From assembly GCF_038025025.1 (NCBI RefSeq), contig NW_027117341.1, positions 1,984,001 through 2,048,000 of the forward strand: a stretch of 64,000 nucleotides of DNA. The letters are read 5' to 3'. The translations under genes and the position numbers were made by a program. Shown here piece after piece: positions 625-63,702 of this stretch (positions within the stretch are counted from its first letter, which is position 1; each line of letters starts with the position of its first letter). This DNA comes from Phyllosticta citribraziliensis. Its lineage: Eukaryota. The notes beneath the pieces were generated by a model. The model made no database searches. It had not been told where the DNA came from and saw only the letters and a program-made list of their open reading frames with translations.

Positions 625-2828
625 GGAGGTGCGACTGAACTGGACTGAAAAGGGGGGGAGAGAGAGAGGGTGTGGGTTGTGTGGATATCTTAGCTACAGT
701 TTTAGAAGAGGAGCGGTCCGCGCGAGCGGCAAAAGTTCTTGGTTCACGCGGCGGCAGCAGAAGCAGCAGCAGCAGCGAGGGAGAGAGGGAGGGAGGTTGA
801 AGTGAGGATGGGAGCTGCAGGGCTTGGCTTGGCTTGCCTGGCTGGCTAGGGCTGGTTGGGGCGTCGTGAGTGAAGAAAGAAATGAGCCCTATCCCCCCTG
901 CATACATGCATGCTTTCTGCATGCTTTCTGCACCACCTCTACCACCACCGCTGCCGCCGCCTGCATATCTGCATCTGCATGCAGGGTGGGTGGGTGGGCA
1001 AGGGACTGACGGATGGTGGCAAAGGGACAGACCCGGGAATCGGGCACCTCATCTCATCTCATGTCATATCGTTTCTTCACTGGCGGTCTTGGCGGTGGTG
1101 GGGTGACGGGGAAGTGGGAGATGGGAGAAGTGAGTGAGGACGAGAGAGCGAGCGTGGGTGGGAGTGTGCTGTGTCTGGGCTGGGCGAGAGAGAGAGAGAG
1201 AGAGAGAAGGAAAGGAGGTCTGGAGTGACAAATAGAAAAGATACCCCCCTACCTACATATGTAGCAATCTACAATCTATACAATCTACAAACTTCATCAC
1301 TCTACCTTACTCTACTCTAGTCTTCTTTGTCAGGCCAATCATTGCCACTGCCATCACAGCAATTCAATCCCATGCCGACCTGAGCACTTTCAGGGCACGC
1401 GTGCACTTGCTTCTTCAGGCACGGGGCTTGAAGACGCGCAGGAAGGAACCAGCCTCCTTGCGTCGTCGTCGTCGTGTCGTGTGTAGGTGCAGAAAACATC
1501 GGCACGGCACGGCATGGCATGGGTGGATCGGCGCCGAGGGATGGGAAGTGTGCCTGGATGGGTAGTTGGGTGGGCGAGATGGTGCGTCCTCGCTTGACCT
1601 CTCTTCTCCTAACTTTGCAGATTCCTTGCGATGGGTGGACGCGTCGCGGCACCGCCGCCGTGTGGCATGCAATCACACAACACCCAGACCGTCGTTTCTG
1701 CAGTCTACTAGTCTTCCAGTCTTCCAGTCTTCCCTAAGAAACTAGGGACAGCCTCCACATACTGCATACTGCATGTTCCTTTAGCAGAACTGCCGGCTTT
1801 GTATTCGAGCAGCAGTGCCGAAGCGTAGGTGCGTAGAGGAGGGTTGGCGGGTTGGCGTGCGATGGTGGTGGAGCACTGCCTGTGGTTTTGAGGAAGGTGT
1901 TTTTGTAGATAGGGGGCATGGCATGACCGCATTCTACCGCCCTATGGGCCTTACGCTTCTGATCACTGATGACGGGGGCGAGGTATCAAGGTATGCAGCA
2001 CGGCGCTGGTGGTGGGAGCAGGCTACCTATCCTGTTCTGTTTGGCGGCGACTGGGGCTACGCGCTGTTTTCGGTGCGCGGGCGATCGTCGTCTTGGGTTA
2101 CAAGCCGCAGTATCGTTGGCTGTGCGGACGCGGGGTTGTTGATGCAGGATTAGTGCGAGCGACGGGAGAGCTGGTACTGCGCACTGGGCTGGGCATATAC
2201 TTGAGCTGATGCATGTGTCGTGATTTCTTGATTGTCTATCGTAAGGTGAGAGGAAAGGCAGGAAGGGGAACGGGGTTTGTTGGTGATTGTGAGTAGGACT
2301 ACTCAGTGCAGAAGCCGCAGTGTACATGTATTGTCGTGGTGAAGAAGGCCTATCCACTAAATCCCTCGCAACAAGTCCACCTCATGGCGCGCCCAAAGAG
2401 CAGGGGAAGCACCGGCCTTTTGTTCCGTAAAGCCCTTTCATAACCTCCTTCCCGTTGAGCTTTCTCGATGTCCGATTGTGCCGCGTCTTTTGTCGACGGA
2501 AGAGGTGTCTATGCCGTGTGTTGTCCGGATATCGCGAAGGGTGAATTAAACGTGGTAGAGAGGGTAGCTGGAGATTGGTCAGTTAGGCACGTCAAATGTG
2601 GAAGGGATGTTGAGGGGACTGACCGGCGGGGGGTAGGTGAACTGACCACTGTATGGATTGCGGCCGTCACTTGTCGCTGTACGCCCCTAGCTTGCCGACG
2701 TCGTGATCTGACTGATGGCTGGCGTTTGTGACGGCTTTGGCTGCGCAATTGCTTTGCAAGGCTGCTGGAATGGACGCTCTTTCTGATTGCTTGTGTCCGT
2801 CACTGAGTTGAGAAGTGTACGTGCTGTG

Positions 2829-3290
2829 TCAACGCCTGGCCAAAAGTCTCGCTCCACTGGTCGCCAATCGACCGAAAAGACTCAACACCCGGGTAATGAA
2901 GAACTCGGCTAGAAGACGCACGACCTCCTCCTGTTCTGCAACGTAAGCCTGCCCGCGGTGCTGGATAGTATCATCCTGCCAGAAATAATCGAAATGCTCC
3001 ATCTCAAGGAACTCCTCCAGAGCCTCAGTGAAAACTTCCGGCTCAAGACATTCATCATCGCCCTCGAATGGCTGCCTGCCCCGGTTGGTGAACAGACTGG
3101 CGTAGTGCTCTCTGTCTGGGTCGAAGGTCTCGATGAAGAGGCGCAGTTTGGCCGCCTCGTGAGGGAAGGATTGGGTGAACTTGAGCATGTCGTAGATGTG
3201 GTGGAGCCGATATGCTTTGCGGAGGTGGCGGCACAGATCTTTTTCACCGCTGCGGTAGGCTCTGCGGAGATCGTTCAGAGAAGACGCCAT
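2829..3290 (-). CDS. Orphan family A, copy 1 (153 aa)
   Basis: Intact ORF sharing HLRxAYRLHxIY..FI..FD..PF..DxCL..F..FW with two neighbouring ORFs. Confidence 0.7.
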   Translation of the reverse strand: MASSLNDLRRAYRSGEKDLCRHLRKAYRLHHIYDMLKFTQSFPHEAAKLRLFIETFDPDREHYASLFTNRGRQPFEGDDECLEPEVFTEALEEFLEMEHFDYFWQDDTIQHRGQAYVAEQEEVVRLLAEFFITRVLSLFGRLATSGARLLARR

Positions 3291-3504
3291 GATGGTATTG
3301 GGAGCGTTGGGTTCTCATGATCTGTTGTTGGGGCATTGTTGCATATTTAAGAGGGTCGGGGGTTTGCACGGCTTGCTTGACGGCTTCGTGGAAGCATGGT
3401 TGCGTTTGCTGGAATGAATTGTACAGTCGCTTGGGTTGGTTGTGTTTGTCACTGAGTTGAGATGTGTTGGCGCTGTATGGCCGATTGTCTCGCTCAGCGC
3501 GTCA

Positions 3505-4041
3505 TCAACCGCGGCGCGAGCGGTGGCGTCTGCGACCACGGCTGTGGCCAACGCTGCGGCTACGGCTGCGGCTAGGGCTGCTGCTCCTGAGACCCTGAAA
3601 GGACTGAAAGAGCTTGAGGACGAAGCTGAAGCCAGTGCGGAGAACGCGGGCCGCCAAAAGCTTCGCATGCCTCTCCTGGCGCCCAACGCAAAGCCGCTTG
3701 CGATGCCGAACATTATCATGACGCCAGAAGTCCTCGAAGTCCTCGAGGTTCAGGAAGGCGTCCAGGGCCGCGCGGAACTTGTCCGGGTCCAGGCACTCGT
3801 CATCCCAGTAGAAGGGAAACCAGCCGCGTCGGTTGGTGAAGAGATGGTCGTAAAATTCCTCGTTTGGATCGAAGGAGTGGATGAAGAGATCCAGAGCGGC
3901 GGCGTTGGCAGGGAAAGTTTGAGTGAACTTGAGCATGTCGTAGATGCCGTGGAGACGGTACGCTCGGCGGATGTGATGCTGCAGGTCTTCTCCCTTGCCG
4001 GAGTAGTAGCTTCGGAAGTCGATGGGAGGAGAGGACGACAT
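3505..4041 (-). CDS. Orphan family A, copy 2
   Basis: MSSSPPIDFRSYYSGKGEDLQHHIRRAYRLHGIYDMLKFTQTFP, closely similar to copy 1, including upstream non-coding motifs. Confidence 0.7.
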   Translation of the reverse strand: MSSSPPIDFRSYYSGKGEDLQHHIRRAYRLHGIYDMLKFTQTFPANAAALDLFIHSFDPNEEFYDHLFTNRRGWFPFYWDDECLDPDKFRAALDAFLNLEDFEDFWRHDNVRHRKRLCVGRQERHAKLLAARVLRTGFSFVLKLFQSFQGLRSSSPSRSRSRSVGHSRGRRRHRSRRG

Positions 4042-5434
4042 GAGGATGGGAGGAGACGGAGAAGAAGAGGAGGAAGAAGAAAAGAAACACATGGTGGTGG
4101 TGGGAGCGTGGGTTCTCGTGATGTGATCTGTTGAGGAGTTGTTGAATCTTCGCGAGGGTCTGGATTTTGCTTTTGCACGGGTTGCTTGACGCCGTCGTAT
4201 GTATTATGTCGTCGCCGAGCATGGTCGACGCTCACCGAATAAAGCAATCATCTTGGGATGGCGGCGCTCTCGCACTTTCATCCCTGACAGAGATCCTGTG
4301 TGCTGCCAAAATCCAGCTACTATTTAGATGTCACCCCCTGAGTGAGAATCTGTGACAAACATCTCTGAAAAAACAAGGAGTTTTGCCCATTCTCAATATT
4401 TTTGCACAATTTTGGAGATCTTCTTTTGAGTCTGGAGTGCGAAATAGGATGTTTTGGCTAAAAGATGCTGGTTGCCGAAGAAGTGTGGCATCTGCAACAG
4501 AAAGCTCACCTCCTGATATCCCACAGCTAGTAGTTTGGTGGCCGAAAGGCGGTGCGGCGCTGGCACTTGCGTGAGTGATTCTTTTCTTCATGTCGTGTTG
4601 AAATGTTTGGTTGAGAGCGGGTGTGTCGTAGAAACATGGCGTGGCTTTTTCTCAATCGTCAAGCGATGTGATGGATACACGGCAGAGCATTCCGCTTCGG
4701 ATGAGCTGGGGTATGGAGAATGTGGCAGTAGAAGCGTCTTATGCGGCGGGAGGGCGGGTGGAAGGAACCGGGACTGCTGGTGGAGGAGATTGAAGATATC
4801 GTTGTCGTGGTGGCCGTAAGATGGAGCCGGAAATTTTGATGTCAGGACTGGATCTCGAATGCCCCTGAGCACCGTTGTCGGCCCGGGACATCTCGGATTA
4901 CTGTAGAAGCGTGTGAAAGCTCCTCATGTGCCGAAATCCTCGCTTTTCCAGTTGCTGCTGAGCTAGCCTCAGAAGTATCCATGCCCGGATTGTGTCTGTC
5001 CCCGCCGGCGGGCGTCGTGGGCGGCGGGACGTCATCAGTGTTATTTCCTCCGGTCGTCTTTTGGGCGCGTCTCCAGTTGCGTCCTCTCCCAGACAAAACA
5101 ACATACGTCCTGGGCTTCCCTGAGCTCTGGGAACTCTTTCACAATTGAATCTCGCCGGATTTGAGCACTCCATCATCGCCAAATCATTTGCGACGGTCAA
5201 GTCACTGGGCTGCTCGCCGCTCGCCTTCGCCGGCGCCCGCACGCGCTCTTCACTTCCACCATTTTCAACGAGCTCGACTCTTTGCGACCGCAAATTTTGG
5301 TATAGCCTTGAAACATCCATCACCAATTGTAACCTCCAGACAGCACATGAAGCTGACGGTCGAAACACCTTAGATGATCAAGTGTGCCTCGCGTCGAGAC
5401 AACTTCCCCCACCACACCGGACCACCCGCCCACG

Positions 5435-6037
5435 ATGGCTTCGCTGTTTCTTTTTGCTCCTGAGCTCGAGGCCCACTACCGCGGCCATGATCTCACGCCG
5501 CACCTGCGCGAGGCATATCGACTTCACTACATCTACGAATTCTTCAAGCCAATCAAAGCAATGTCGATCGTGGCCAAGCAGTTGGAGATCTTCATCGATT
5601 TCTTCGACTTCGACGGTGCCGTTTTCCACAAGCTCTTCAACAAGTCGATTCTCGGCTGCTTCACGTACAAGAAATCTCCATTTAGCGTGACCGACCCCTG
5701 CCTCGGCCGCGAGATGTTTACAAAGGCCGTCGACGCTTTCATGGCCTTGCCGTTCTTTGCGCCCTTCTGGCAGCACCCGACGATTGAGCAGCGCGCGAAG
5801 GTTGTCATGCGCCATGAGCAGCGCCTTGAGCCGATGCGCGCTCGCTATGCTGCGCGCGTCATTGCCATGTCGTTGACTCATCGTCCCCACGCTGGCGGTC
5901 TGACCAGTTTCGCGCCTTTCCGGATTGCGCGCGTGATGGCTTGGCTGGTCAGTGGCGAGATCTACTCACAGATGTTTGACATTCTGCTAATGCATTCAAT
6001 CAGGATCTTGCTGGCGACGAGTTGCGCACTTGATTGA
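5435..6037 (+). CDS. Orphan family A, copy 3 (inverted, more diverged; 3' end uncertain)
   Basis: MASLFLFAPELEAHYRGHDLTPHLREAYRLHYIYEFFK..LEIFIDFFD..PFSVTDPCL..FAPFWQH. Confidence 0.65.
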   Translation: MASLFLFAPELEAHYRGHDLTPHLREAYRLHYIYEFFKPIKAMSIVAKQLEIFIDFFDFDGAVFHKLFNKSILGCFTYKKSPFSVTDPCLGREMFTKAVDAFMALPFFAPFWQHPTIEQRAKVVMRHEQRLEPMRARYAARVIAMSLTHRPHAGGLTSFAPFRIARVMAWLVSGEIYSQMFDILLMHSIRILLATSCALD

Positions 6038-6375
6038 CGGTTGCTTGGTCGCTAATCTGCCCATACCATTGGCGATGAGCACTCACAGATGATACGAAGG
6101 GAAATTGGGATGATTGCGTTATGAAAGGGAAGGACATTTGGGGTTTTTGTCCCCAGCAGTCGATACGGTAAGCTGAACATGGTTCTTCTCCCTGCGAGTA
6201 CATGAGACTGACGGCAAAACAGGCGTGGATACTACGGCCCACTTTTCCCCACTCATTGGCTTACACAGTGCAAGTAGAAAATGGAGAAGTGACTTACGAA
6301 ATGGAGTTCTCCCACCCGTGGATGATTGATTGGCGACCATGAAGCAATAACGCGTCCAGAATCCCGTCCCAACTC

Positions 6376-8338
6376 TCACACCTGCACCATCAGCGCTCCC
6401 CTCTCCGTCAAGAACCCCATGTACCTCACCTTACACATCCTCCTCCACCTCTTCCCCCAGAATCCCAACGCCACACCTCCCACCAAACTCCCCATAACAA
6501 GCGCCCCAAACACCGTAAAAGCAACGCCATACCCCGCCGCCTCAATAAACGGCTGCACGGCATAACTAACAGCGAAATTAACACAACTGGAGCAAATCGC
6601 CAACACAACGACCAACTCGCCACCGACGTCGGCAAAGCAGTCCATCGCATAAGCCGTCGCCACGCCGCTGGCGCCCACCTGCTGCGCAATCATGCCGCCT
6701 AGTCCGACCGCGACGACGGCCCAGTGCAGCCCGCGCGCCGCGCCCCACCCGTACAGCAGGTAGCCGGCGCCGCCGTACACGGAGCACGGCGCCAGCGCCC
6801 ACAGCCGCATCTCGGGCTCTTTGACGCCGCCGTTGCGGCGCGCGAGGCGCAGCACCAGCGCGTCGGAGAGCGGCCCGCTGGTCGTGTAGCCCATGATGGC
6901 GCCGACGAGAGCGGCGAGGCAGAGGAGCCCGGTCGAGGTTGTGCTCCAGTTGTAGGGCGGCGCGGTGAGGATTTCGGAGACTGTTTGGTGAGCGTTAAGG
7001 GTGTGCTTATGGAGGTGGTGGCGCGGATGGGTGGATCAGGGGGAGCGGGAAGGACCTTACCTGTGTTGAACGACACAATGCCTGCAGTGCACGCGAACGC
7101 AAAGATGAATCCTGGGATTACGATGTTGGGGAAGGTGAAGAGGTAAAAAGGCAGCTTGAAGTAGTGCCAGTACGACGTGCGGTCCTGCTCGTAGTACGTC
7201 CACAGCTTCAGCCGCTGCGGCCAAGTTCGCGCAGGGATGTCAGGCACGATGGCGCCAACATCAACATCTGAGACGGAGACGTCTGAATTACGCGGTTTCT
7301 TGCCCTCCATGTCAAGGTGTCCGGCCTCGTCGTTGTTGGTTTCCGCAGGGAGCGCAGGCGCCGTAGTTGTCGATGTGGCGATGTTTGCCCCATGACTAGT
7401 AAAGAGGAAGCGCGGAAACATCGTTTCCTCAAAAGTGAACAGCAGCAGGAGAAGCACGCCGCCATTGATAATGGCCGAGATGTACTGCGACCACCGCCAG
7501 CCAAGCGCATCGGCAACGCTGCCGCCAGCGACGAGACCAAGGCTGCAATCTCGCGTCAGCCCACGACAAACTCGATGCCCTTGGGTAGGTAGTAACTCAC
7601 ATAGACCCCAGCTGCTGGCCAAACAGATATACCGACAGCGCGCGGCCCCGCTGGTGTACGAAGAACATGTCGAACACGCACAGCTGGATGACGGCCTCGT
7701 AAGCGCTGGTCCCGAAGCCTCCCAACACCATGGAAAGCATCCACTGCACCGTGCCGTGGAAGAAACCTGTCCACAGTGCAGATGATAGAGTCAGAATGGT
7801 GGTTAATAGGAGCACGGGTCGACGCCCAATCTTCATGCATGCGGGGATCCAGAAGATGTTGACGAAGCCGAGAAGCAGGTAGTTGAGGGCGCTGCCACCG
7901 TTCATGTTGGTCAGCGAGACGCCCGTGTCTTGGCTGACGGTTGTCCATGCCGCTGGTCATTGTCAGATTTGCGTTTGCGTATGGTGATGGCTGTTCTACC
8001 CCCGAGAATGTTTTCGCCGTATGAAAAGGAACATGCGTACAGCGACAGCAGGAAGAGCTGATAGTACTTTTTGTATTTGCTCCAATTCTGGTATCTCGTC
8101 AGTCATGTAGTTGCAAGAGTAGTTTGTTCCACGCACCAACGGATCGCCGCCGCAAAGCGTGGGTTGTGGCAGCAAGACAATGTCCGAAGTCCCCGCCCCG
8201 GCGTGCGAGACGTCAAGGTTGTGGCTTACTACCCCCGACGATCAGCGATTGGCACGCACAAAGCACAATGTCCATACCATCAACCAGGTACTCGGTGCCT
8301 GGAACATCTTCGACGGTATCCATCGGGAGCACGGACAT
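6376..8338 (-). CDS. MFS transporter (HOL1/DHA1-like), multi-exon
   Basis: Exons encode LLPQPTLCGGDPL, KIGRRPVLL, DMFFVHQRGRALSVY, LGWRW, FEETMF and KEPEMRLW motifs, with many TM segments. Confidence 0.88.
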
Positions 8339-54298: not shown

Positions 54299-54902
54299 GA
54301 TGGTAAAGTGGGATGCGGAACTTGCGTGCGTGTAGCTGAGAGAGAAGATCTTGCCTTTGGTGTTGCGGAACTTCTCTAAGGATTAGTCGTTTCTCGGCAC
54401 TGCTGGAGATTCTGGGTCGACAGGTCCAATCGAACCAAGTACATTCAGCTGGTGAGCGACAGAGAACCATTGTAAAAATTCAGGGCAAATTTCGACTGGA
54501 TTTCGAACGCATGATCGCAATATTCCATAGCTCTTGAATCATGAATGCAGCTTTGATTCAATCTTGGAATGCTTCTTGTGGGCTGGGTGTGCTTGTATCG
54601 GCGTTTGCTTACATCGTCGTGGAGATATCTAGAAGTAAGTCGGCCTGTCCTCCCACCTCCAACACGAAACACGCACCACAAACGCACCTCTCCCCTCCCA
54701 TCCCAATTCAAGCCCCATCAATCCATCTTGTCTCAGCTCGATCTACTTCAAGCTTCCTCTTCCTGTCATTCGAGTCGTGCCTTCGCGCTCTGTCGTTTCC
54801 GTCGCCGTTTCGGCGCACGGGATCTGGCGCTCGCAGACCAAACCGGTGAGTCAACTCCAAGTTTGCGACCAAGCCGCGTCGCACTCTCTCTTCCCTTTCC
54901 CC

Positions 54903-55055
54903 ATGACGAGACCTTGGCAGAACAGAATCGAGTCCTTCTCTCGGTCCTGCGATTGCGCATCGCTGAAGCCGCCTCGTGCTGGTTTCACGGTCGCGCAATC
55001 GCCAGTTCAACCAGAGATTGCGACGCTGCGAACAACCCAAGCTACAACCATCTGA
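54903..55055 (+). ncRNA. Box C/D RNA, intron 1 (long, internal hairpin)
   Basis: Intron 54846-55135; C ATGACGA 54903, D' CAGA 54923, D CTGA 55052, branch 55112. Confidence 0.65.
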
Positions 55056-55279
55056 GCCTTTCATCCTTACATGGCCGTCCAGTATGTCATTTTTCCTTCA
55101 AGTTCCCCTTTGCTGACTTGTTTCCTCCCGAGCAGACTTAGCGGCGCGCGTTTCTTCCGTGTGCGGCGGCTTTTGGCTTGGTGACTCTCACCTCCCAGCC
55201 AGACTTTTGGCACGCCCTGCATCTTACAATCCCATCTCAGTAAGTTTGTCCCCATCTCAACACTCTTCCCTTTACGGGC

Positions 55280-55343
55280 GTGATGACCACATTTAAATTT
55301 GCACGACCGTGAGGGTGCACCCAATGATCGTCGATCCTCCTGA
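55280..55343 (+). ncRNA. Box C/D RNA, intron 2
   Basis: Intron 55240-55415; C GTGATGA 55280, D 55340, branch 55391. Confidence 0.75.
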
Positions 55344-55589
55344 TCCCCTTGCCTTTCCTCGCCGAACTCTCCCACCTTCACCGTACCAACGCTAACCTTT
55401 TCAATATCCCAAAAGGTTCATGTGCCGAAGCCTTTGTATTTCGCGTCGCATCGCCTGTTGGCAGAGATCCTCTGGGCCCTTTCGAGGCCGCACACAATAT
55501 GGACAAGACATTCCCTGGAGCAACATCGAGCAATTTCCGGTCTCCCTTTGAAAGGCTTTGTAAGTCCTTGTCGCTTTGCCGACCTCCAC

Positions 55590-55647
55590 ATGATGACCGT
55601 ACTATTTTCAAGAGCGGCGTTGCCGCGTGGCTACACACAATCTCTGA
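55590..55647 (+). ncRNA. Box C/D RNA, intron 3
   Basis: Intron 55560-55706; C ATGATGA 55590, D 55644, branch 55695. Confidence 0.75.
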
Positions 55648-55793
55648 GCCATCACATCTCGTCTTCCGCACTCGTCCCACATCTTAAACACCGCGCTGAT
55701 TCTCAGACAGATTTCGATACTCGAGCAACGCCCACGCAGGCAGCACCAGTAAGTCCGCACTGTCGCTCCGCGATCAACCGCAACGACCTTTGC

Positions 55794-55858
55794 ATGATGA
55801 AGCCACAGAAGTTCATGGACATGAGCAGTTTTGCCACTGATTCAACCAACCTTACTGA
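55794..55858 (+). ncRNA. Box C/D RNA, intron 4
   Basis: Intron 55749-55924; C 55794, D 55855 (alternative CTGA at 55837). Confidence 0.7.
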
Positions 55859-56046
55859 TTTCCGCCCTCTCGTTTGTTTTTCCTCGAGCTTTAGCGCACA
55901 TGCTTAACTTTTGTGATTTGGTAGACACCGTATCTCGAAGCAGGCATCAGAGCGCAATGCATCTTGGCCTCCACCTCTACCTGCTTTCATTCAATGCAGC
56001 AAAGATAACCCAAATAAGTTTTGTTCCCTTTTTCCATTTCAGATAC

Positions 56047-56112
56047 CTGATGACGCAGAAAGCAAGAATTTGAGAGGTCCCGCCGGCCGAATGTAAAAAG
56101 CACCACGTCTGA
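56047..56112 (+). ncRNA. Box C/D RNA, intron 5 (donor reads ATAAGT)
   Basis: C TGATGA 56048, D 56109, branch GCTAAC 56159, CAG 56183. Confidence 0.6.
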
Positions 56113-56267
56113 TCCACCTCCCCTATTCCACTGTCTTGTTATGAATACAAGAAAAATGGCTAACACAAACCGTACGTCGACAGGGCTGCCTTCAACGGAA
56201 GGCTTCTGACAAGTCACCAGACAATCAGTGAGTGCACTGATTCCCCGCTTTCCCCTTTCCATCGATC

Positions 56268-56318
56268 GTGACGACAGCTTTGGGTTGATACACGTGATTC
56301 TCCTCTTCCTTCTTCTGA
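56268..56318 (+). ncRNA. Box C/D RNA, intron 6 (short)
   Basis: Intron 56228-56386; C GTGACGA 56268, D 56315, branch 56365. Confidence 0.65.
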
Positions 56319-56563
56319 CATCTACACTTCGCTTTTCATTTCGAAGCCCATGGTACAAACTTCCGCTGATTCATTGTGCCCTGCAGAACTGCACCGCCGG
56401 TCAGTCACTCCCCTCCTATCTCAGCCCCGACTAGCCGACCATGGCGCATGATTTCGTCTTGGATATCTCGGCCATCCTGAACGGACACAATTTCCTCTAA
56501 GGCGCGCCTGGTAAATCCATGCGACAGGTAAGTCCATACACATACCACATCCACCAGTATCCT

Positions 56564-56629
56564 GTGATGAACCAATCAAGCATGCAAATGAGTGGCTTGA
56601 ACGAGCACATGACTTTACAAAACATCTGA
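56564..56629 (+). ncRNA. Box C/D RNA, intron 8
   Basis: Donor 56528; C GTGATGA 56564, D 56626, branch 56676. Confidence 0.78.
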
Positions 56630-56773
56630 CATACTCCTCCTCCCGTCTTGGTCCTCTTGCACCTTGAAAGCAATGGCTGACATTCCTCGTGTAAGGACAG
56701 CACACTTTTCAGGCTCTCATTCGGACGAATTCGGTACGTCATCCCAGCGTTTTACTTTTTTTTTCCCTTGCAA

Positions 56774-56843
56774 ATGATGAACGACTTTTCGGTGTGGAGC
56801 GCAAGTTATTTGCTGCGTGAACACACACAGTTTCCTTTTCTGA
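56774..56843 (+). ncRNA. Box C/D RNA, intron 9
   Basis: Intron 56734-56921; C 56774, D 56840, branch 56900. Confidence 0.75.
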
Positions 56844-56981
56844 TTCGCAGGATCGATTGCTGTCTATCTACATGGTTGCTTTTTGAGCACATTCCGGTCG
56901 CTGACTTCTCCCATTGAACAGGAAGATCATGCTCCTCCGTGTCCGTAAGTTCCTGCACCCTTCTCTTCCCTGCCGTACACC

Positions 56982-57065
56982 ATGATGATCAAATCTCTAA
57001 CGAGAAGTGGGCACTGTCCGCTCCAAGACTGATTACACATGTTTTTATCTATTTTGCCGAACTGA
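56982..57065 (+). ncRNA. Box C/D snoRNA, intron 10; candidate 25S rRNA guide
   Basis: Intron 56945-57127; ATCTATTTTGCCGA before box D is antisense to 25S UCGGCAAAAUAGAU. Confidence 0.88.
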
Positions 57066-57194
57066 TTGATCCAACCCAATTCACCTTGTTTGATTTTCAG
57101 AAATTTGCGGACGCTGACTTCTCACAGTTGATACTGCGAACTCCCTTTCGTGCAACAGTAAGTTTCCTACCCTTCCTACTCCCTGCCCTACTCC

Positions 57195-57280
57195 ATGATG
57201 ATCCAAATCTATCTTACATGAAGTGGACGCTGTCCGCTACAAGATCGATTAGATGCGTTTTATCTATTTTGCCGAACTGA
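57195..57280 (+). ncRNA. Box C/D snoRNA, intron 11; paralog of intron 10 RNA
   Basis: Intron 57158-57340; same 14-nt antisense element at 57262-57275. Confidence 0.88.
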
Positions 57281-57593
57281 TTCATTCTACCCTCTGTCTA
57301 TTCTGGCTCGCTGTTGCGCATTGCCGACGCTAACTCCCAGTCGACAGGATTACTCTTTCATATTCGCATACTTAACACGCAGGGATGGTGCTTCCCTCAA
57401 AACTCCAACGCGCCGGTAAGCTCTCTTCCCCGTATACTCGCGAGTATCCTCGCTAGTCCTTACATTTTAAAGCACCCGACGCTTCACAGGCTTCCGCAGC
57501 GCTTCTTTTGCACCACCGCCACGAAAGTGCCTCCAAATATGGCTGATATCAACGCAAGTAAGTGGCAACTCCCCCCACACACTTCCCCTTTGA

Positions 57594-57667
57594 ATGATGA
57601 GCCGTGTCGTCATGCTTTTGAGGTCGGGCTTTTCTACTCGATCGACGAGATTCCCACACACTTCTGA
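57594..57667 (+). ncRNA. Box C/D RNA, intron 13
   Basis: Intron 57558-57729; C 57594, D 57664, branch 57717. Confidence 0.78.
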
Positions 57668-57810
57668 TTTCATCAATTGCTTTCTTTACCTTTCTACACA
57701 CATGTTTTTTGCAGGAGCTGACATTCCAGACTGAGGCAGTGCTTGCTTGGCCCACACAATACGATTCCCGCATGTGAGTGACCAATCCCCTCCTCGCGCC
57801 ATTATTGCAA

Positions 57811-57882
57811 GTGATGAGTCCCTGATGTTGTTCTGAGGTCGAGGTTTGCTTCCTGATCGAAGATGTCATCTAACCGTTCTGA
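57811..57882 (+). ncRNA. Box C/D RNA, intron 14
   Basis: Intron 57774-57951; C 57811, D' 57833, D 57879, branch 57931. Confidence 0.8.
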
Positions 57883-58024
57883 CTGTTTTTGCAACCCTCC
57901 CGTTTCTTTGCATTTAGGTTCCTGGCGATAGCTAACATTCTGTTGAACTAGAGAGCCCCTCGTACAATCCTGAGAATCAACGCAGGTAAGCTGTGCTCCT
58001 CACCTGCTTCCCTTTGCCCGGTAC

Positions 58025-58073
58025 ATGATGATTGAAACTCGCGGAGAGAATGACGACATTTTCGGCCTTCTGA
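58025..58073 (+). ncRNA. Box C/D RNA, intron 15 (49 nt)
   Basis: Intron 57986-58141; C 58025, C' ATGACGA, D 58070, branch 58121. Confidence 0.72.
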
Positions 58074-58201
58074 TTGCCTTTCCTCCTGCTCTATTTGTTT
58101 CAGCTACTTCATTCTGACCCGCTGACGCTGTTTTGTTCTAGGAATCGTTTGTAGCGAAGCGCGTAAGTATTTCCCTCCCCAGTTCCCTATCTACCCTTCC
58201 T

Positions 58202-58290
58202 GTGATGTCAAATTCTTGCAGAAGTCGACGTTGTGGGCTTAACGGCCTGCCCTGTCGACGCATGATCTGGACTACACTCATTCCATCTGA
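58202..58290 (+). ncRNA. Box C/D RNA, intron 16
   Basis: Intron 58163-58355; C GTGATGT, D' CAGA, GTCGAC stem, C' ATGATCT, D 58287; 10 nt (ACTCATTCCA) antisense to 18S UGGAAUGAGU. Confidence 0.72.
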
Positions 58291-58432
58291 TGCTCTTTGC
58301 CACTACTCGATTCATCTCGAACGTTGCTTCCATCCCGAGGTAACGGAAAATTCAGATCACGTTACGATTGACGCGAATTCGAGTTCCCACCGGTAAGTCT
58401 CCCCTGTCTTCATCTCTGTTTCCCACCCTCGT

Positions 58433-58498
58433 ATGATGATCCAATCTCTTTGACTGCCGATTTTGTCGGCTGTATGACTACTTAGAATGATTTTCTGA
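58433..58498 (+). ncRNA. Box C/D RNA, intron 17
   Basis: Intron 58393-58574; C 58433, GCCGA/TCGGC hairpin, D 58495. Confidence 0.8.
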
Positions 58499-58644
58499 TT
58501 CCTTTCCGTCTTTTTCGAATCTTGCTGTTCTCCGGCTTTCGCGAAGAATCCAAGCTGATGTTGCGCCACCGCAGATACTGTCATCGATCGGTACTCGCGA
58601 AACACAACAAAGGTCAGTCTTGCCACTCTTTTGTTCGCCCTGAC

Positions 58645-58709
58645 ATGACGAGAAAATATATATGGAGGCCGACACGCGCGGCCACGTGACGCTTTAGTAG
58701 TTTTTCTGA
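58645..58709 (+). ncRNA. Box C/D RNA, intron 18
   Basis: Intron 58613-58783; C ATGACGA 58645, C' GTGACG, D 58706. Confidence 0.72.
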
Positions 58710-58851
58710 CACGCCTTCTGTTTCCTCTGGATTGAGTGCATGTCCAGACCTTCCTTTGACTGACTTCGATCTCTGGTGGACAGCACCGTCTTCAACTCAA
58801 TGCATTCCATGCTGGTGAGTCTTCCGCTACTCCTTCTCCATTCTCCCTGAC

Positions 58852-58925
58852 ATGATGAACAAACTTTTCCGACTGTTGACACCGTCGGCTGTGTGGACAC
58901 ACAACTATTGCATATGACTATCTGA
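58852..58925 (+). ncRNA. Box C/D snoRNA, intron 19; candidate 18S 5'-end guide
   Basis: Intron 58815-58995; GCATATGACTA before box D is antisense to 18S UAGUCAUAUGC. Confidence 0.85.
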
Positions 58926-59063
58926 GTTCTCTTTCCTTCGCTTGCAATCCGCTCTGAACATCTAGAAAATTCTTACTAAGCCCGTGCATATCCAGGAAGC
59001 AACTTTCATGGTCGTTCGTCCAAGTAAGTCCTCCATTCTCCCCCTTCTTGCCTTTTTCCTCAG

Positions 59064-59129
59064 ATGATGACCATGACCAAGTCGAGGCCGACTTCGTCGG
59101 TCCATGGAGCACTTGGATGCGGCATCTGA
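59064..59129 (+). ncRNA. Box C/D RNA, intron 20
   Basis: Intron 59024-59196; C 59064, GGCCGAC/GTCGGTC hairpin, D 59126. Confidence 0.8.
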
Positions 59130-59263
59130 TCCGTCTAAATTCTTCTCCACTCCTCCGAAGACCGCATGGGCACCGGCTGACGACCGGCATACTTAGTTCA
59201 AGTCACCCTCACTGTGATCACATTCAAGTAAGATTAGCGCCCAAATCTTCCTGTCGCTCCTTA

Positions 59264-59354
59264 ATGATTACAACCTACCACTTCTGAGTTCGACGATGTC
59301 TATCCATGAAAAACACTTTGTTACCTAACATTGTGTTCCCTTGCACGTCACTGA
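59264..59354 (+). ncRNA. Box C/D RNA, intron 21; candidate 25S guide
   Basis: Intron 59228-59424; C ATGATTA, D' 59284, D 59351; TTGCACGTCA antisense to 25S UGACGUGCAA. Confidence 0.72.
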
Positions 59355-59533
59355 TTCAAGCAACACCGAGATATTCAGTCAGCCCCGCGGGAGTAGGACT
59401 ACTGCTAACATTTGGTGCTACCAGGCAGGTCTGCTCCATTCCTTTGCTCAGCCAAGAAACTTGATGAAGCCGTTGCCGAAATGAGTAAGTTACTTCGTCC
59501 CCTCATCCTTCCAATGCCTTCCACAACATATTC

Positions 59534-59604
59534 CTGATGATGTCAGATTGGAAGAGAACTGAACGACTGGCTCGACCAGCTGTTGATGCACACACTTTTT
59601 CTGA
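59534..59604 (+). ncRNA. Box C/D RNA, intron 22 (shared-scaffold subfamily)
   Basis: Intron 59485-59674; C 59535, D' 59559, D 59601. Confidence 0.82.
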
Positions 59605-59732
59605 TCCCGTTTTATCCTTACACTACCACCAATGAATCTTCCACCTTGACAACTGCTAACAATTTGATGAATAGATGCGGCAAGCAGCTTTTTACGTACG
59701 TTGTTCGGCCCGTCCATTCCTTTCCCCTCCGC

Positions 59733-59807
59733 ATGATGGATACATACATTGGGAAAAAGTTCTGAACGACTGGACTGCAGCCGTTGACGTATACCTTTCA
59801 TTTCTGA
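59733..59807 (+). ncRNA. Box C/D RNA, intron 23 (shared-scaffold subfamily)
   Basis: Intron 59696-59867; C ATGATGG, D' 59762, D 59804. Confidence 0.8.
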
Positions 59808-59986
59808 CACTAGCCACATTTTCCCACCTCCAAATCCGTGAAATTCATTGCCGCTGACGCATGACAGGACCAGAATAGCTTCAGTTGCCCTCAAATCGCA
59901 TTTTCGGCGAACAAACAGCCTTTCAAGTAAGTTGTTATGGCCTTCCGCCAACAAAGCTCTCAACCATTAATTACCACAACCCTCGA

Positions 59987-60063
59987 ATGATGATGATATA
60001 TTAAGCTCAGGAAACTGAACGACTGGCTTGACCAGCCGTTGACGTACATACGCACACTTCTGA
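59987..60063 (+). ncRNA. Box C/D RNA, intron 24 (shared-scaffold subfamily)
   Basis: Intron 59927-60128; C 59987, D' 60015, D 60060. Confidence 0.83.
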
Positions 60064-60260
60064 GCCCCATTGCTTCTGCCCCTACCTCACTCCCGAGTCT
60101 TCTGTATTGCACTGGCTGACGCAAATAGCCAACCATGTACAGATGCTCCGCAAAAACTGTCCTCTTGTCCATTCGGACGCTTCCATGCCAGGAGTTGTGC
60201 GGAAGACAGCCTTGCAACCGTAGTAAGTCGCCCTGCCCCCTTGTTCTCTTTCACCCCTTC

Positions 60261-60335
60261 ATGACGATACTCCCAAACAGTTCAGTGATCTGAACGACTG
60301 GCCTGACCAGCCGTTGACGCCAAACCCATATCTGA
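60261..60335 (+). ncRNA. Box C/D RNA, intron 25 (shared-scaffold subfamily)
   Basis: Intron 60223-60404; C ATGACGA, D' 60290, D 60332. Confidence 0.8.
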
Positions 60336-60765
60336 CCCCGCGCACCGCTCTTCTATCCATCGCAAGGTGCCGAGTTGAAGACGGCTGACGCGCAATACAT
60401 CTAGACGTGCCCTCTCAACCCCTGAGCAAGCCGGCCCAACCCCATTTTCTGCAACTACTTGTCCAGCAGGGGAAAGAGTAGCCGCTCCCATCTGCAGGTC
60501 AGTCTGCACGAAGCCGTCATCGCCAGAGCAGCCGACTGAGCCCTGATTGTCGAGACGCGCGAAGCCGACCGGCGCGGCCTGCTGCTTGGTGTTGTTACAC
60601 AGAAAAGCCGATATCTCTCCAGCCCGTCGAGCTGCGAAGCAGATACGCGCTCTGTTAACAACAACCACGCAGTAAAGAAAAGGGTTGGGCATTCCGTCTG
60701 TTTGCACATTTCGTTTTGACAGGTACGCCGCCTCTCCTCCGTCTCCTCTGCTCCAGAGCGCGCAC

Positions 60766-60844
60766 ATGATGGAAAACTCGAACCCATGGCTTGCATGAGT
60801 ACCGAATCTGACTGTCCGGTCATGACTACACAACTCGCGTCTGA
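60766..60844 (+). ncRNA. Box C/D RNA, intron 27
   Basis: Intron 60723-60924; C ATGATGG, D' ATGA 60795, C' ATGACTA, D 60841. Confidence 0.77.
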
Positions 60845-61007
60845 GCGCTCTCTCCTTTCCTTTCTCCATCATCTGGGACTCCCCCTCGCGGAACCGATCG
60901 CTAACGCACAAAACGCACGTATAGGCTACACTCCGCGCGGGAGAAGCCATTTCGTTGTAAGTGTGTCCACACCCTACCCTCCTATCCTTCGCTCCCTGGG
61001 CGCATGC

Positions 61008-61084
61008 ATGATGAGACACGCACGCATGGCTTACATGAGTCCTGGATTTGACCGTCCAGTGGTGACTAAGATATTAGCGTCTGA
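61008..61084 (+). ncRNA. Box C/D RNA, intron 28; paralog of intron 27 RNA
   Basis: Intron 60957-61161; C 61008, D' ATGA 61035, D 61081; GCATGGCTTA antisense to 18S UAAGCCAUGC. Confidence 0.82.
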
Positions 61085-61463
61085 GCTTTTTGCGCCCCGA
61101 ATCTTCTTTCGCTTGAGTCTCGTTTGTTGCGCGTTGGCTAATTCATGGAACTGGTGGGCAGGTCGGCGGTGGGTGTCGGGCTAGGGCGTCAGGGCGGTGC
61201 CGCGGTGCTGTGTTGGATGAATCAAACTGCCGTGTTTTTCAGGGTTGCGTGGCGTTGTGGTGACTTTGGATAGGCAGGATACGTTGAGGCGTGGAACAAG
61301 TGTGCGATAGCACTGAACGACGAAAGAAAATGGTTGACAGGCAGAGAAAACTCCACCCGGGTCCTGATTTCTCAAATGATGGCCCGAAAGATGCAAACCC
61401 AGACCCTCGTATCCCAAACGCCTTGAAACGCCTCAAATACAAATCGAGCCCGAGCACAGCGCC

Positions 61464-62064
61464 TCAATCCTCGCTGCGGTCCCTCCGATAACGGTCGTCC
61501 CTGGTGGCCTCCTCTCCGACCTCCTTCTTCATGGCGTCTCTCAATCTCTCCTCCTGTTTTCTCCAGTGGCTGCCCTCCTCGTAGTCTGCGCTAATGCCGA
61601 GGGCTTTCCGCAGCTTCTCGCTCTCCTCGATCTTAGCGGCGGCGAGCTCGTGCACTTGGTGCGACTTGAGCTTCTGCGCCTTGGACTTGTCCATCCGGTC
61701 ATTCGAAGACTCGGCCTCCTTCTGCAGCTTTTTGCGCAGGGCGTCGCATTGGTCGTCAATGTCGTCCTCGTCGACGCTGGGGCGCGTGTTAGCAAGGTTC
61801 GTCTGGTGGTTGCGGCGGTGGTCATGCGCACCCTTCGTCCTCCAGCCGGTCTCTCAGCTCAAACACCTTGACTTCGATGGCGCGCTTGCGGTCGTGCTCG
61901 AGGATCTCGCGGTCGGGTTGGCGCTGGCGGTGCTGCTTGATTTGGTCGTAGTCCTTGGTGTAGGGCGCAGCGTTGTCGCGCGGCCTGAGGAGCGAGAGGT
62001 TGCGCTGGACGTAGCCGGATGTGCCACTGCCGCGCGGCGTCGAGAGGCCGACGTTGGAGGACAT
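61464..62064 (-). CDS. CWC21: Pre-mRNA splicing factor Cwc21
   Basis: MSSNVGLSTPRGSGTSGYVQRN, ILEHDRKRAIEVKVFELRDRLED, YEEGSHW; intron 61777-61831. Confidence 0.95.
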
Positions 62065-62277
62065 GTTGGTTGAGGTTGTTGACGGAATAATGAGTGTCGT
62101 CGGCTCGGAGGTTTGAGGTTCGCCGCAGCAGGCCGTGGCCAGTGAATTCGTAGCCGCAGCTCCGCAGTGGACGCAGGTAAAGTGCGGCAACAACCTTTTT
62201 GCTAGACTCATGCCCCTCCATGACGAACTGTCGCACTCTCTCTTCGACGCTTCTGTTCCTTCGCACTCATCCAGAAA

Positions 62278-63702
62278 ATGGCAGGCTTTGATGACTCTTC
62301 GATATCGCAATCGGCGGAACCGTATACCTCTCTTCCTTTTTCTCCGGTAACCAAGCAGCATATTCTGAATTGCTCGTACCATTCCTGGCATCCACGGTAA
62401 AGACTCTTCGCAATTGCGCAAACAACGACGGCAGCTTACCATTTTGACAGCTACCGCAAGGTCACCCCAAAAGCCCGCCTGATCCCTTTGACCGCGCCCT
62501 TCCTCTCATACCTACGCGCAGACGGCATTCTTCTGCCCGACGACGACGCCTCTCCGCCGCGCGACTGGTCCGACGACGACAGCGGCATCTTTTCTTCGTC
62601 CGAGAATCCAGACGCTGGGGAGGAGAGCGACGATGAAGACCCGTCGGCAGAATGGCGCCACTTGCACTTGCAAATCAAAAACACCATCGAAGAGCTGGGG
62701 GGCAAGGTGGTGCCCAAATTGAATTGGAGCGCGCCAAAAGACGCGACATGGATGAATGCTAATAGCATGGACTGCCGCACGCCGAGCGATATCTACCTGC
62801 TGCTGAAGAGCAGCGACTTCATCACACACGACCTGGAGCATGCGTTTGACGACACGGAGGAGCCTGCGCAGTCGAATGCAGCAGACGAAGCGCAGGCCGA
62901 CCCCGAGATACCCTACCATCTCGTTTTGCGCAAGCACTTTTTGATCAACCCGTCGCTCGAGTTCCGTTGCTTTGTGCGGCGGCGCAATGTTTTGGCCATC
63001 TCTCAACGCGACCTGAACCACTTTGAATTCCTCTTTTCCATGTCCGGCACTCTCCGCTCCCGCATCGCATCTTTCTTCGACGACAATCTGAGAGACACCT
63101 TTCCCGACGAAAACTTCGTCTTCGACGTCTACGTCCCCCCGCCTCACGACAAGGTCTGGCTGATAGACATCAATCCGTGGGCGCAAAGGACGGATCCGCT
63201 GCTGTTTAGCTGGCTGGAGCTCCTCACCATGGACGGGCCCGATTCGGAAGAATGGGTACAGAAGCAAGAGGAGCAAGAGGCCAGAGCAGCAGCGAACGTC
63301 GTGTCCATTCCCATAGCACCAGCTCAGCCAACCGACTCCAGCCCGCCTTCATCCACGGCTGCCCCGGCTTCCAGCAGCCATCAACGCCAAGACGCGGACC
63401 ACGACGACAACGCCTCCGAAGCCTCCACCATTACGCCATCCGACTCGGAGGAGGAGGACGACGACGACGCAGACGAAGAAATCTGGACCCCCGAGATCCG
63501 CCTCGTTAAAAAGGACGACCCCGAAGCCTACAGCTTCGCATCGCCGCAATACAGCGCGCACAAGCTGCCGCGGGACGTTGTCGACGCCAGCCGCGGCGGC
63601 GAGGGCGCCATGCGCGAGTTCGCCGAGCAATGGAAGGAGGTGCTAGCCAGAGCCGAGCGGGGCGACCAGCAGGCCAGCGACAGCGACGGCGATGACGAGT
63701 GA
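62278..63702 (+). CDS. CDC123: Cell division cycle protein 123 (D123 family)
   Basis: [74 protein letters not shown]. Confidence 0.95.

Follow-up and report, generated by a model that had tools for sequence, protein, structure and literature searches.

A 25-intron array of box C/D units in a predicted non-coding host transcript of Phyllosticta citribraziliensis

Non-coding host genes of the UHG type, with a single small nucleolar RNA (snoRNA) of the box C/D class per intron, are already described in Neurospora and other fungi (PMC2780460, PMC3596301, PMC5824354). In N. crassa, 45 of the 55 box C/D genes are intronic, and the six clusters, of which five are also conserved in yeast, lie in hosts with short open reading frames (ORFs) only, at distances of 41–60 nt to the 5' splice site (PMC2780460). 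Clusters I–III, which hold seven, three and three snoRNAs, are intronic across filamentous fungi and show compound introns and exon loss (PMC3596301); cluster I has the family order snR78-77-76-75-74-73-72 (PMC3596301, PMC5824354). A survey of fungi gives 68 families of the box C/D class, a cluster (polycistronic or intronic) with as many as seven members, and few orphans, numbering two in yeast, two in N. crassa and nine in A. fumigatus, seven of the last having since been assigned (PMC5824354). Our search of the open-access literature turned up neither a fungal host that carries more than seven snoRNAs nor an array rich in orphans. Here we describe an array of 25 box C/D units, each in an intron of its own, at positions 54846 to 61161 of a 64,000-nt stretch of the Phyllosticta citribraziliensis genome (NCBI RefSeq assembly GCF_038025025.1, contig NW_027117341.1, positions 1,984,001 to 2,048,000 of the forward strand; hereafter the window), and compare it with these and other snoRNA hosts.

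Layout, splicing and coding potential of the array

We delimited the array by reading positions 54400–61600 and marking motifs, with boxes, splice sites and spacings tabulated for every intron. It lies on the + strand, from a first donor at 54846 to a last acceptor at 61161, and comprises 25 introns that each contain a C box and a D box in the same order: donor, pyrimidine-rich leader, C box, D box, CTRAY branch motif and AG acceptor. These introns measure 151–287 nt (median 181) and, in our model, are separated by internal exons of 21–318 nt, mostly 21–60 nt. Donors begin with GT in 24 of the 25 introns, mostly as GTAAGT, and the AG acceptor is invariant. The two boxes that define the class—a C box (RUGAUGA) near the 5' end of the RNA and a D box (CUGA) near its 3' end—are present throughout, the first as a perfect RTGATGA in 15 units and with a single mismatch in ten, the second as CTGA in 25/25. 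Their placement is tight: 30–60 nt from donor to C box (median 39), 49–153 nt from the C box through the D box (median 72), and 60–80 nt from the end of the D box to the acceptor (median 69). A preceding sequence-only reading had proposed just such a repeated unit between these end points, with both boxes in 25 introns, and in this respect our tabulation agrees with it entirely.

Three additional intron-like segments start with GT and lack usable boxes. The first (56400–56527) has a GTCAGT donor and a degenerate ATGATTT and CTGA about 35 nt apart, and may be a decayed unit; the second (57416–57557) has a GTAAGC donor and a branch-like GCTGAT at 57542; the third (60498–60722) has a GTCAGT donor, no C box and an acceptor ending in GACAG. 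Their acceptors adjoin (first and third) or overlap (second) the following donor, leaving zero-length exons. Added to the 25 box-bearing introns, they make up the "about 28" units counted from sequence alone. We also considered an H/ACA snoRNA within 60498–60722 and rejected it, as the fold of this segment was not unusual (z = -1.5) and no clear H or ACA layout was seen there.

The architecture stands far above chance level. A composite regular expression that combined donor, C box, D box, branch motif and AG with their spacings matched the + strand 21 times, always within the array and never in the remaining 57.7 kb of that strand, while 200 shufflings of its sequence averaged 0.04 matches and never exceeded one. 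The sole match on the - strand (7892–8136) looked on inspection like a false positive. Tandem Repeats Finder detected no array with a period of about 200 nt, only two short unrelated rows; the units are therefore too diverged to read as a repeat, as had been suspected.

Evidence on splicing comes from contigs of two sequencing runs of one organism, X1 and X2, whose RNA label was guessed in both cases. A 175-nt contig of X1 joins positions 58356–58391, 58574–58610, 58782–58813, 58995–59023 and 59197–59221, and so skips 182, 171, 181 and 173 nt with GT..AG ends. The skipped segments are the predicted introns of unit 16 (58393–58574; C box 58433, D box 58495), unit 17 (58613–58783; C box ATGACGA 58645, D box 58706), unit 18 (58815–58995; C box 58852, D box 58922) and unit 19 (59024–59196; C box 59064, D box 59126). 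A 16-nt loose end of the same contig has a single match in the window, at 58147–58162 and directly before the donor at 58163, which implies removal of the intron of unit 15 (58163–58355; C box GTGATGT 58202, D box 58287) as well. The contig is direct evidence of a spliced RNA made of micro-exons from the array, and for this stretch the proposal that each intron of a spliced transcript carries a single box C/D unit holds at four observed joints and a fifth implied by the loose end; the other 20 introns are predicted. When the exons are joined according to our model, every frame is interrupted (by 12, 10 and 23 stops), the longest ORF that begins with ATG spans 104 amino acids, and most internal exons have lengths that are not multiples of three. 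The spliced RNA thus offers no convincing ORF, consistent with the non-coding host and the stops in all frames that had been suggested at the outset.

On these grounds, we think it highly probable that the locus is a multi-intron non-coding host gene of the GAS5/UHG type with intronic box C/D snoRNAs, because of its layout and especially because of the narrow distance from D box to acceptor (60–80 nt). Hirose and Steitz are said to have found, in 2001, that mammalian intronic box C/D snoRNAs are best processed when they lie some 70–80 nt upstream of the 3' splice site. The predicted host transcript runs from about 54640 to about 61460 on the + strand; it is drawn from the intron/exon model and the spliced contig, and both of its ends are arbitrary and unmapped.

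Several observations count against this assignment. The best terminal helix that would bring the two boxes together is no better than in shuffles, with a mean of 2.48 bp compared with 2.19 bp, and reaches at least 4 bp in five of the 25 units. The RNA evidence is limited to contigs of a single run with a guessed label, and that same run yields an unspliced contig of 2089 nt that covers 59959–61600 and continues to about 62047, thereby spanning part of unit 23 and everything through unit 27 before running into a convergent CWC21-like gene. Its depth is about 1525, as opposed to 11.5 for the spliced contig (roughly 130-fold), and a 214-nt contig of X2 likewise passes 60498 unspliced. These contigs may represent precursor RNA, an antisense, neighbouring or 3'-UTR (untranslated region) transcript, or DNA; given the longer one, splicing of the last introns stays a prediction. 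Finally, unit 5 (56013–56183; C box CTGATGA 56047, D box 56109) has no GT donor but AATAAG/ATAAGT at 56013. At 56013–56018, ATAAGT stands in place of GTAAGT, and the only GT nearby belongs to a weak GTTTTG donor. The snoRNA of unit 5 may be carried by an exon, or by a compound intron shared with unit 4.

Complementarity of the guides to rRNA

Possible targets in ribosomal RNA (rRNA) were sought in stand-ins from other fungi, not in the host's own rRNA. One source was a set of 110 loci from metagenomes, taken around the ITS4 primer site; 34 of them had a Pezizomycotina-like 25S start, and 6–10 of the 34 were used. The others were at least 40 eukaryotic ribosomal DNA (rDNA) contaminants around the LR11 primer site in prokaryote assemblies and one complete rDNA unit, L153 (G001:C4), on a eukaryotic contaminant contig of a prokaryote assembly, in which Rfam places 18S at 528–2327, 5.8S at 2534–2687 and the large subunit (LSU) at 2817–6613. 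Coverage by seven to ten Pezizomycotina-like stand-ins extended over 18S positions ~400–1800 and 25S positions 1 to ~2060; for the 3' part of 25S there were several fungal ones. No canonical snoRNA of the host genome served as a positive control. We scored perfect complements of at least 10 nt, a fair criterion given that canonical N. crassa guides form 10–17 pairs with no mismatch except in one entry (12/1) (Table 1 of PMC2780460).

The stand-ins themselves yielded some side observations. L153 is a complete fungal-type rDNA repeat with a spacing of about 10.2 kb, although its assembly is labelled a bacterial metagenome-assembled genome, and its LSU carries a group I intron at 5062–5508, ahead of the CTTAAGGTAGCC segment. 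At least 40 prokaryote assemblies contain an exact eukaryotic LSU primer site (L111–L150), which indicates contamination with eukaryotic rDNA. In L024, the ITS4 site is directly followed by cloning-vector-like sequence with a T7 promoter, suggesting an amplicon-clone artefact, and no ITS4 primer match was found in viral contigs.

Five of the 25 D guides (units 9, 10, 15, 18 and 20) contain a perfect rRNA complement of at least 10 nt that starts 1–3 nt upstream of the D box, against a mean of 1.26 in shuffles; five were reached in 0.3% of 300 shuffles. At 11 nt or more, three were observed and 0.42 expected from shuffles, while at 9 nt or more the numbers (seven versus 4.4) did not differ significantly. 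For comparison, 6.9% of the other CTGA sites in the window (n = 392) reach 10 nt. The strongest case is the pair formed by unit 9 (56945–57127; C box 56982, internal CTGA 57029, D box 57062) and its paralogue unit 10 (57158–57347; C box 57195, D box 57277), which share an identical D guide, ATCTATTTTGCCGAA. At positions 2–15 upstream of the D box, this guide forms 14 of 14 perfect pairs with 25S TCGGCAAAATAGAT in seven Pezizomycotina-like stand-ins, and by this comparison it is the only unambiguous rRNA match of the array; the predicted site, opposite position 5, is the bracketed 25S G in GUCG[G]CAAAAUAGAU. The hairpin of unit 19 contains a 9-mer that adjoins the same target.

The remaining in-register matches are shorter. 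Unit 20 (59228–59424; C box ATGATTA 59264, internal CTGA 59278, D box 59351) has the D guide TTGCACGTCA, which pairs perfectly over 10 nt with 25S TGACGTGCAA, a segment present in all ten stand-ins of one comparison. On its C-box side, unit 2 (55240–55415; C box GTGATGA 55280, D box 55340) carries a 9-nt 25S complement, ATTTGCACG at 55297, followed by ACC and then GTGA, and its fifth guide position falls on the same 25S G as that of unit 20, so that both would be predicted to address the bracketed G in UGAC[G]UGCAA. In 18S, the D guide of unit 15 pairs perfectly over 10 nt with TGGAATGAGT and that of unit 18 over 11 nt with positions 21–31 of L153, with predicted sites at the A in UUGG[A]AUGAGU and the U in AG[U]CAUAUGC, respectively; units 16 and 18 both have complements to 18S 19–31. 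Within the RNA bodies, we counted 13 10-mer rRNA complements where about seven were expected, two of which could serve a D' box. One is in unit 1 (54846–55132; C box ATGACGA 54903, internal CTGA 54962, D box 55052), a long RNA of 153 nt from C through D, whose 11-nt 25S complement ATCGCCAGTTC at 54998 is not followed by a clear D' box. The other is in unit 27 (60957–61161; C box 61008, D box 61081), where the 10-nt element GCATGGCTTA, complementary to 18S 45–54 of L153, precedes a C and an ATGA. Two 12-nt perfect 25S complements also occur outside the C/D units, at 55094–55105 in the tail of intron 1 and at 60591–60602 in a box-less segment; by our own estimate, about two are expected by chance in 6.3 kb.

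With antisense elements of at least 10 nt in fifth-position register in units 9, 10, 15, 18 and 20, and possibly in units 1, 2 and 27, some 18 of the 25 units remain for which no rRNA match was found in the fungal stand-ins by the standard criterion. Unit 3 (55560–55710; C box ATGATGA 55590, D box 55644) has no match of at least 10 nt adjoining its D box in these stand-ins. In unit 4 (55749–55924; C box 55794), with CTGA at both 55837 and 55855, the longest D-guide run is 9 nt. The best rRNA duplex of unit 8 (56734–56921; C box 56774, D box 56840) has 12 bp including two G-U pairs, which is the level of shuffles. Units 6 (56228–56386; C box GTGACGA 56268, D box 56315) and 14 (57986–58141; C box 58025, D box 58070) would give short RNAs of 51 and 49 nt, and unit 7 (56528–56695; C box GTGATGA 56564, D box 56626) could form a 5-bp flanking stem. 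Other classes of target gave little: no transfer RNA (tRNA) genes were found in the window, and the search for U6 had no match in genome G001, an uninformative outcome given that it matched no control genome either.

Nor did the units resemble known families. At Rfam gathering thresholds there were no matches in the whole window, and at permissive thresholds the region 54400–61600 gave chance-level matches only, the best snoRNA being snR56 (22.8 bits, E = 8.5), with none to the snR72–78 models in the array. Rfam thus assigned none of the units, in keeping with the initial failure to recognize a canonical snoRNA among them. The cluster I families guide methylation at 25S U2421, 18S U578, 25S C2197, 25S G2288, 18S A28, 25S C2959 and 25S A876. 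In stand-in rRNA, no unit placed its fifth guide position on any of these sites. In yeast numbering, the predicted sites would be 25S G ~1904 (units 9/10), 25S G ~878 (units 2 and 20), 18S U24 (unit 18) and an 18S A some 10 or more nt before A541 (unit 15). Two of them would presumably lie close to known sites, that of unit 18 near 18S A28 (offset 4) and that of unit 20 near 25S A876 (offset 2).

If the locus is a host gene of this kind, we consider it rather likely that most of its units are orphans with respect to rRNA. A number of results count against the interpretation as a whole. The rRNAs compared were foreign ones, and 18S 1–400 and 25S ~2060–2250 were covered solely by the rather divergent L153. 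Guide–rRNA scores that allow G-U pairs and one mismatch equal those of shuffles, units 9/10 excepted, and across the array as a whole 10-mer rRNA complements are no commoner than in controls (128 versus 85–156; 60 versus 26–59). In yeast numbering, moreover, presumably none of the predicted sites coincides with a known methylation site of yeast or N. crassa.

A rival account is that the array consists wholly or largely of ordinary guides for rRNA methylation, each a lineage version of a canonical family, whose targets escaped us through the use of foreign rRNA and through degenerate D' boxes. The enrichment of in-register matches would fit this idea, as would complements lying beside known methylated sites (18S 21–31 near A28; 25S TGACGTGCAA near A876), and stand-ins can indeed hide real matches, since in L153 the match of units 9/10 has shrunk from 14 to 9 nt. 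But methylated sites lie in conserved rRNA cores (PMC2780460), and the coverage by Pezizomycotina-like stand-ins was wide, yet 20 of the 25 D guides lack a perfect in-register 10-mer, just two further units have an internal 10-mer or 11-mer able to serve a D' box, and Rfam recognizes nothing at gathering scores. We judge this explanation unlikely, and equally so its corollary that the locus is merely an unusually large merger of canonical snoRNA genes.

Paralogy and divergence of the units

An all-against-all local alignment of the 25 RNAs, for which the maximum in 600 shuffles was 23, placed ten units in four groups of neighbours: 9/10 (score 100), 26/27 (61), 21–24 (35–60 over all six pairs) and 12/13 (30). 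Unit 16 shows a weak resemblance to units 9/10 (25–29), and the other 14–15 units have no paralogue detectable by this alignment. The idea that the array was built by local duplication accordingly stands for ten of the 25 units and was not borne out for the remaining 14–15.

Units 21 (59485–59674; C box CTGATGA/ATGATGT 59534/59537, D box 59601), 22 (59696–59867; C box ATGATGG 59733, D box 59804), 23 (59927–60128; C box 59987, D box 60060) and 24 (60223–60404; C box ATGACGA 60261, D box 60332) show most clearly what is kept and what is lost. Their introns are invariant in the donor, the core of the C box, a block of about 30 nt composed of a D' box (CTGA), an 8-bp hairpin and a C' box (TGAYG), the D box and the branch site, while both guide segments and the flanks cannot be aligned. 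Units 26 (60723–60924; C box ATGATGG 60766, internal CTGA 60808, D box 60841) and 27 behave in the same way, as do units 12 (57558–57729; C box 57594, D box 57664) and 13 (57774–57951; C box GTGATGA 57811, D box 57879): boxes and internal hairpin are kept and guides differ. The exception is units 9/10, which share an identical block of 25 nt over the D guide and D box and have diverged in the 3' trailer. By eye, units 16–19 have in common a central hairpin of the GCCGAC...GTCGGC type—GCCGA...TCGGC in unit 16, GGCCG...CGGCC in unit 17 and GGCCGAC...GTCGGTC in unit 19. D' and C' boxes are clear in units 21–24, degenerate but plausible in units 12/13, 16–19 and 26/27, and not assignable in several others. 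Unit 12 also carries, at 57640–57652, ACGAGATTCCCAC, which we take to be a sense (not antisense) identity to a conserved 25S segment and probably a coincidence. Repeat-induced point mutation was considered as a cause of the divergence and set aside, as the array (TpA/ApT 0.57, (CpA+TpG)/(ApC+GpT) 1.28) equals the rest of the window (0.55, 1.25).

In units 21–24, an invariant D'-hairpin-C' core between saturated flanks suggests selection on a two-site, methylation-competent particle, and the conserved scaffold argues for particles of the methylation type that are competent for assembly. That the guides change freely points either to diversifying specificity or to an absence of constraint on them. 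Under the latter, most units would be decaying duplicates, that is, snoRNA pseudogenes whose functionless guides drift in a host retained for a few working snoRNAs (units 9/10, for example). Decay of this sort could explain why guides vary freely between paralogues, why boxes have already gone from 56400–56527, 57416–57557 and 60498–60722, why unit 5 has lost its GT donor, and why ten of the 25 C boxes have a mismatch and terminal stems are weak, but it sits poorly with 25 intact D boxes out of 25, with spacings to the splice sites that vary within only 30 and 20 nt amid surroundings unalignable for 14–15 units, and with the near invariance of the core in units 21–24. We consider it improbable.

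The alternative that we hold tentatively, as a possibility with less than even support, is that about 18 units are functional orphan guides belonging to a lineage-specific, diversifying box C/D family produced from one spliced non-coding transcript. Each RNA might then combine a scaffold of two box pairs with fast-changing guide cassettes and direct 2'-O-methylation, or another activity of small nucleolar ribonucleoproteins (snoRNPs), outside the conserved rRNA core; conceivable substrates, proposed with the same reserve, are tRNAs, small nuclear RNAs (snRNAs), pre-rRNA spacers or messenger RNAs.

Under the host-gene reading, the route from gene to particle might run as follows. RNA polymerase II would transcribe a host of about 6.5 kb, from which the spliceosome would remove some 25 short introns. 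By analogy with the family, the excised introns would be debranched and trimmed by exonucleases to the box C/D snoRNP assembled on the C and D boxes, with the spliced micro-exon RNA left as a by-product. A minority of the units may guide 2'-O-methylation of rRNA: units 9/10 would address one 25S G and units 2 and 20 another, the targets of units 15 and 18 would lie in 18S, and units 1 and 27 are further possibilities. The other 18 or so might act as orphan guides on substrates of the kinds named above, or serve some purpose other than guiding. Duplication of intron–exon modules probably accounts for at least part of the array's growth; afterwards, boxes and D'-hairpin-C' core would have been retained and the guides altered.

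One further feature counts against a non-coding host: frame 1 of the joined exons contains a stop-free stretch of 239 codons (54641–56477), rich in S, P, R, L and A, of a length that 0.65% of 2000 shuffles reach. It begins at the arbitrary 5' end of the model and has no ATG before codon 229, and we take it for a caveat rather than a gene. One could build on this stretch the idea that the locus is no snoRNA gene at all but a micro-exon gene, protein-coding or not, whose repeated motifs act in splicing or as other signals of its introns. We hold this to be exceedingly improbable: there are stops in every frame, the lengths of most internal exons are not divisible by three, and the fixed spacing of RTGATGA and CTGA, along with the D'-hairpin-C' cores, is the layout that defines box C/D RNAs and is not known as a splicing signal.

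Comparison with described snoRNA hosts

The locus lies next to ordinary housekeeping genes. A CWC21/cwf21-like ORF, named by eye from its translation, occupies 61464–62505 on the - strand and converges on the 3' end of the host. It is followed on the + strand by a CDC123/D123 gene (62401–63702; single-exon ORF 62488–63699), with homologues that carry Pfam PF07065 and a protein that is 93% identical to that of Phyllosticta citrichinensis, 81–83% to those of other Phyllosticta and about 60% to those of other Botryosphaeriales and Dothideomycetes, which by itself places the window in a Phyllosticta-like dothideomycete.

The UHG-like hosts of fungi (N. crassa clusters I–VI; snR72–78, snR57-55-61 and snR41-70-51) are the nearest counterparts. 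Like the array, they have one box C/D snoRNA per short intron, short ORFs, canonical splice signals and similar distances to the splice sites, and compound introns and lost exons are described for them; the box-less segments with zero-length exons resemble the juxtaposed "complex introns" of fungal snoRNA clusters (PMC3596301). The known clusters differ in holding two to seven snoRNAs, all assigned to rRNA and conserved across Ascomycota, whereas here 25 units share one host, most lack an rRNA match, none is recognized by Rfam, and the canonical target set and order were not recovered. The novelty lies in the array's size and in the missing rRNA complementarity of most guides, not in the kind of host gene. 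The suggestion of an undescribed guide-RNA system was for this reason too strong—the units look like ordinary box C/D snoRNAs, and UHG-like hosts are on record (PMC2780460, PMC3596301, PMC5824354)—and the clear departure in scale and target status makes the locus a new variation on a known type of non-coding snoRNA host.

If the interpretation is correct, one locus with 25 box C/D genes, most of them without an rRNA target, would enlarge the typical box C/D repertoire of a fungus by about a third, and snoRNA catalogues built by homology from a few model species would be missing lineage-specific members. Groups of paralogues in which the scaffold is kept and the guides are changed would offer a compact natural system for the origin of guide specificities and the roles of orphan RNAs. 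Even if most units are decaying copies, the locus would still document how the intron–exon modules of a snoRNA host multiply and die.

Clusters in plants, trypanosomatids and Euglena share with the array a history of local duplication followed by antisense change (PMC2780460 for the first two), but they are cut from polycistronic precursors, mostly by nucleases and not singly from spliced introns, and their members mostly have predicted rRNA targets.

Among vertebrate hosts, GAS5 carries about ten snoRNAs with known rRNA targets, as against 25 mostly unmatched units here. GAS5 and UHG/SNHG1 are otherwise alike in being spliced, in their poorly conserved non-coding exons and in intronic snoRNAs at a fixed distance to the 3' splice site (in part after works cited in PMC2780460). 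With SNORD115 and SNORD116 the array has in common a large tandem set of intron-borne box C/D units, a non-coding host and, for most units, the lack of an rRNA match (in part after PMC3413130). The mammalian copies are near-identical and share one antisense element, whereas here no tandem repeat is found, only ten of 25 units have a clear paralogue, divergence has gone past the point of alignment, and paralogues other than units 9/10 carry different guides. The setting differs too: the array lies between ordinary housekeeping genes of a fungus and, unlike the mammalian orphan arrays, in a haploid organism. Should most of its units prove to be functional orphan guides, the locus would be a fungal counterpart of those arrays, but one with many different specificities.

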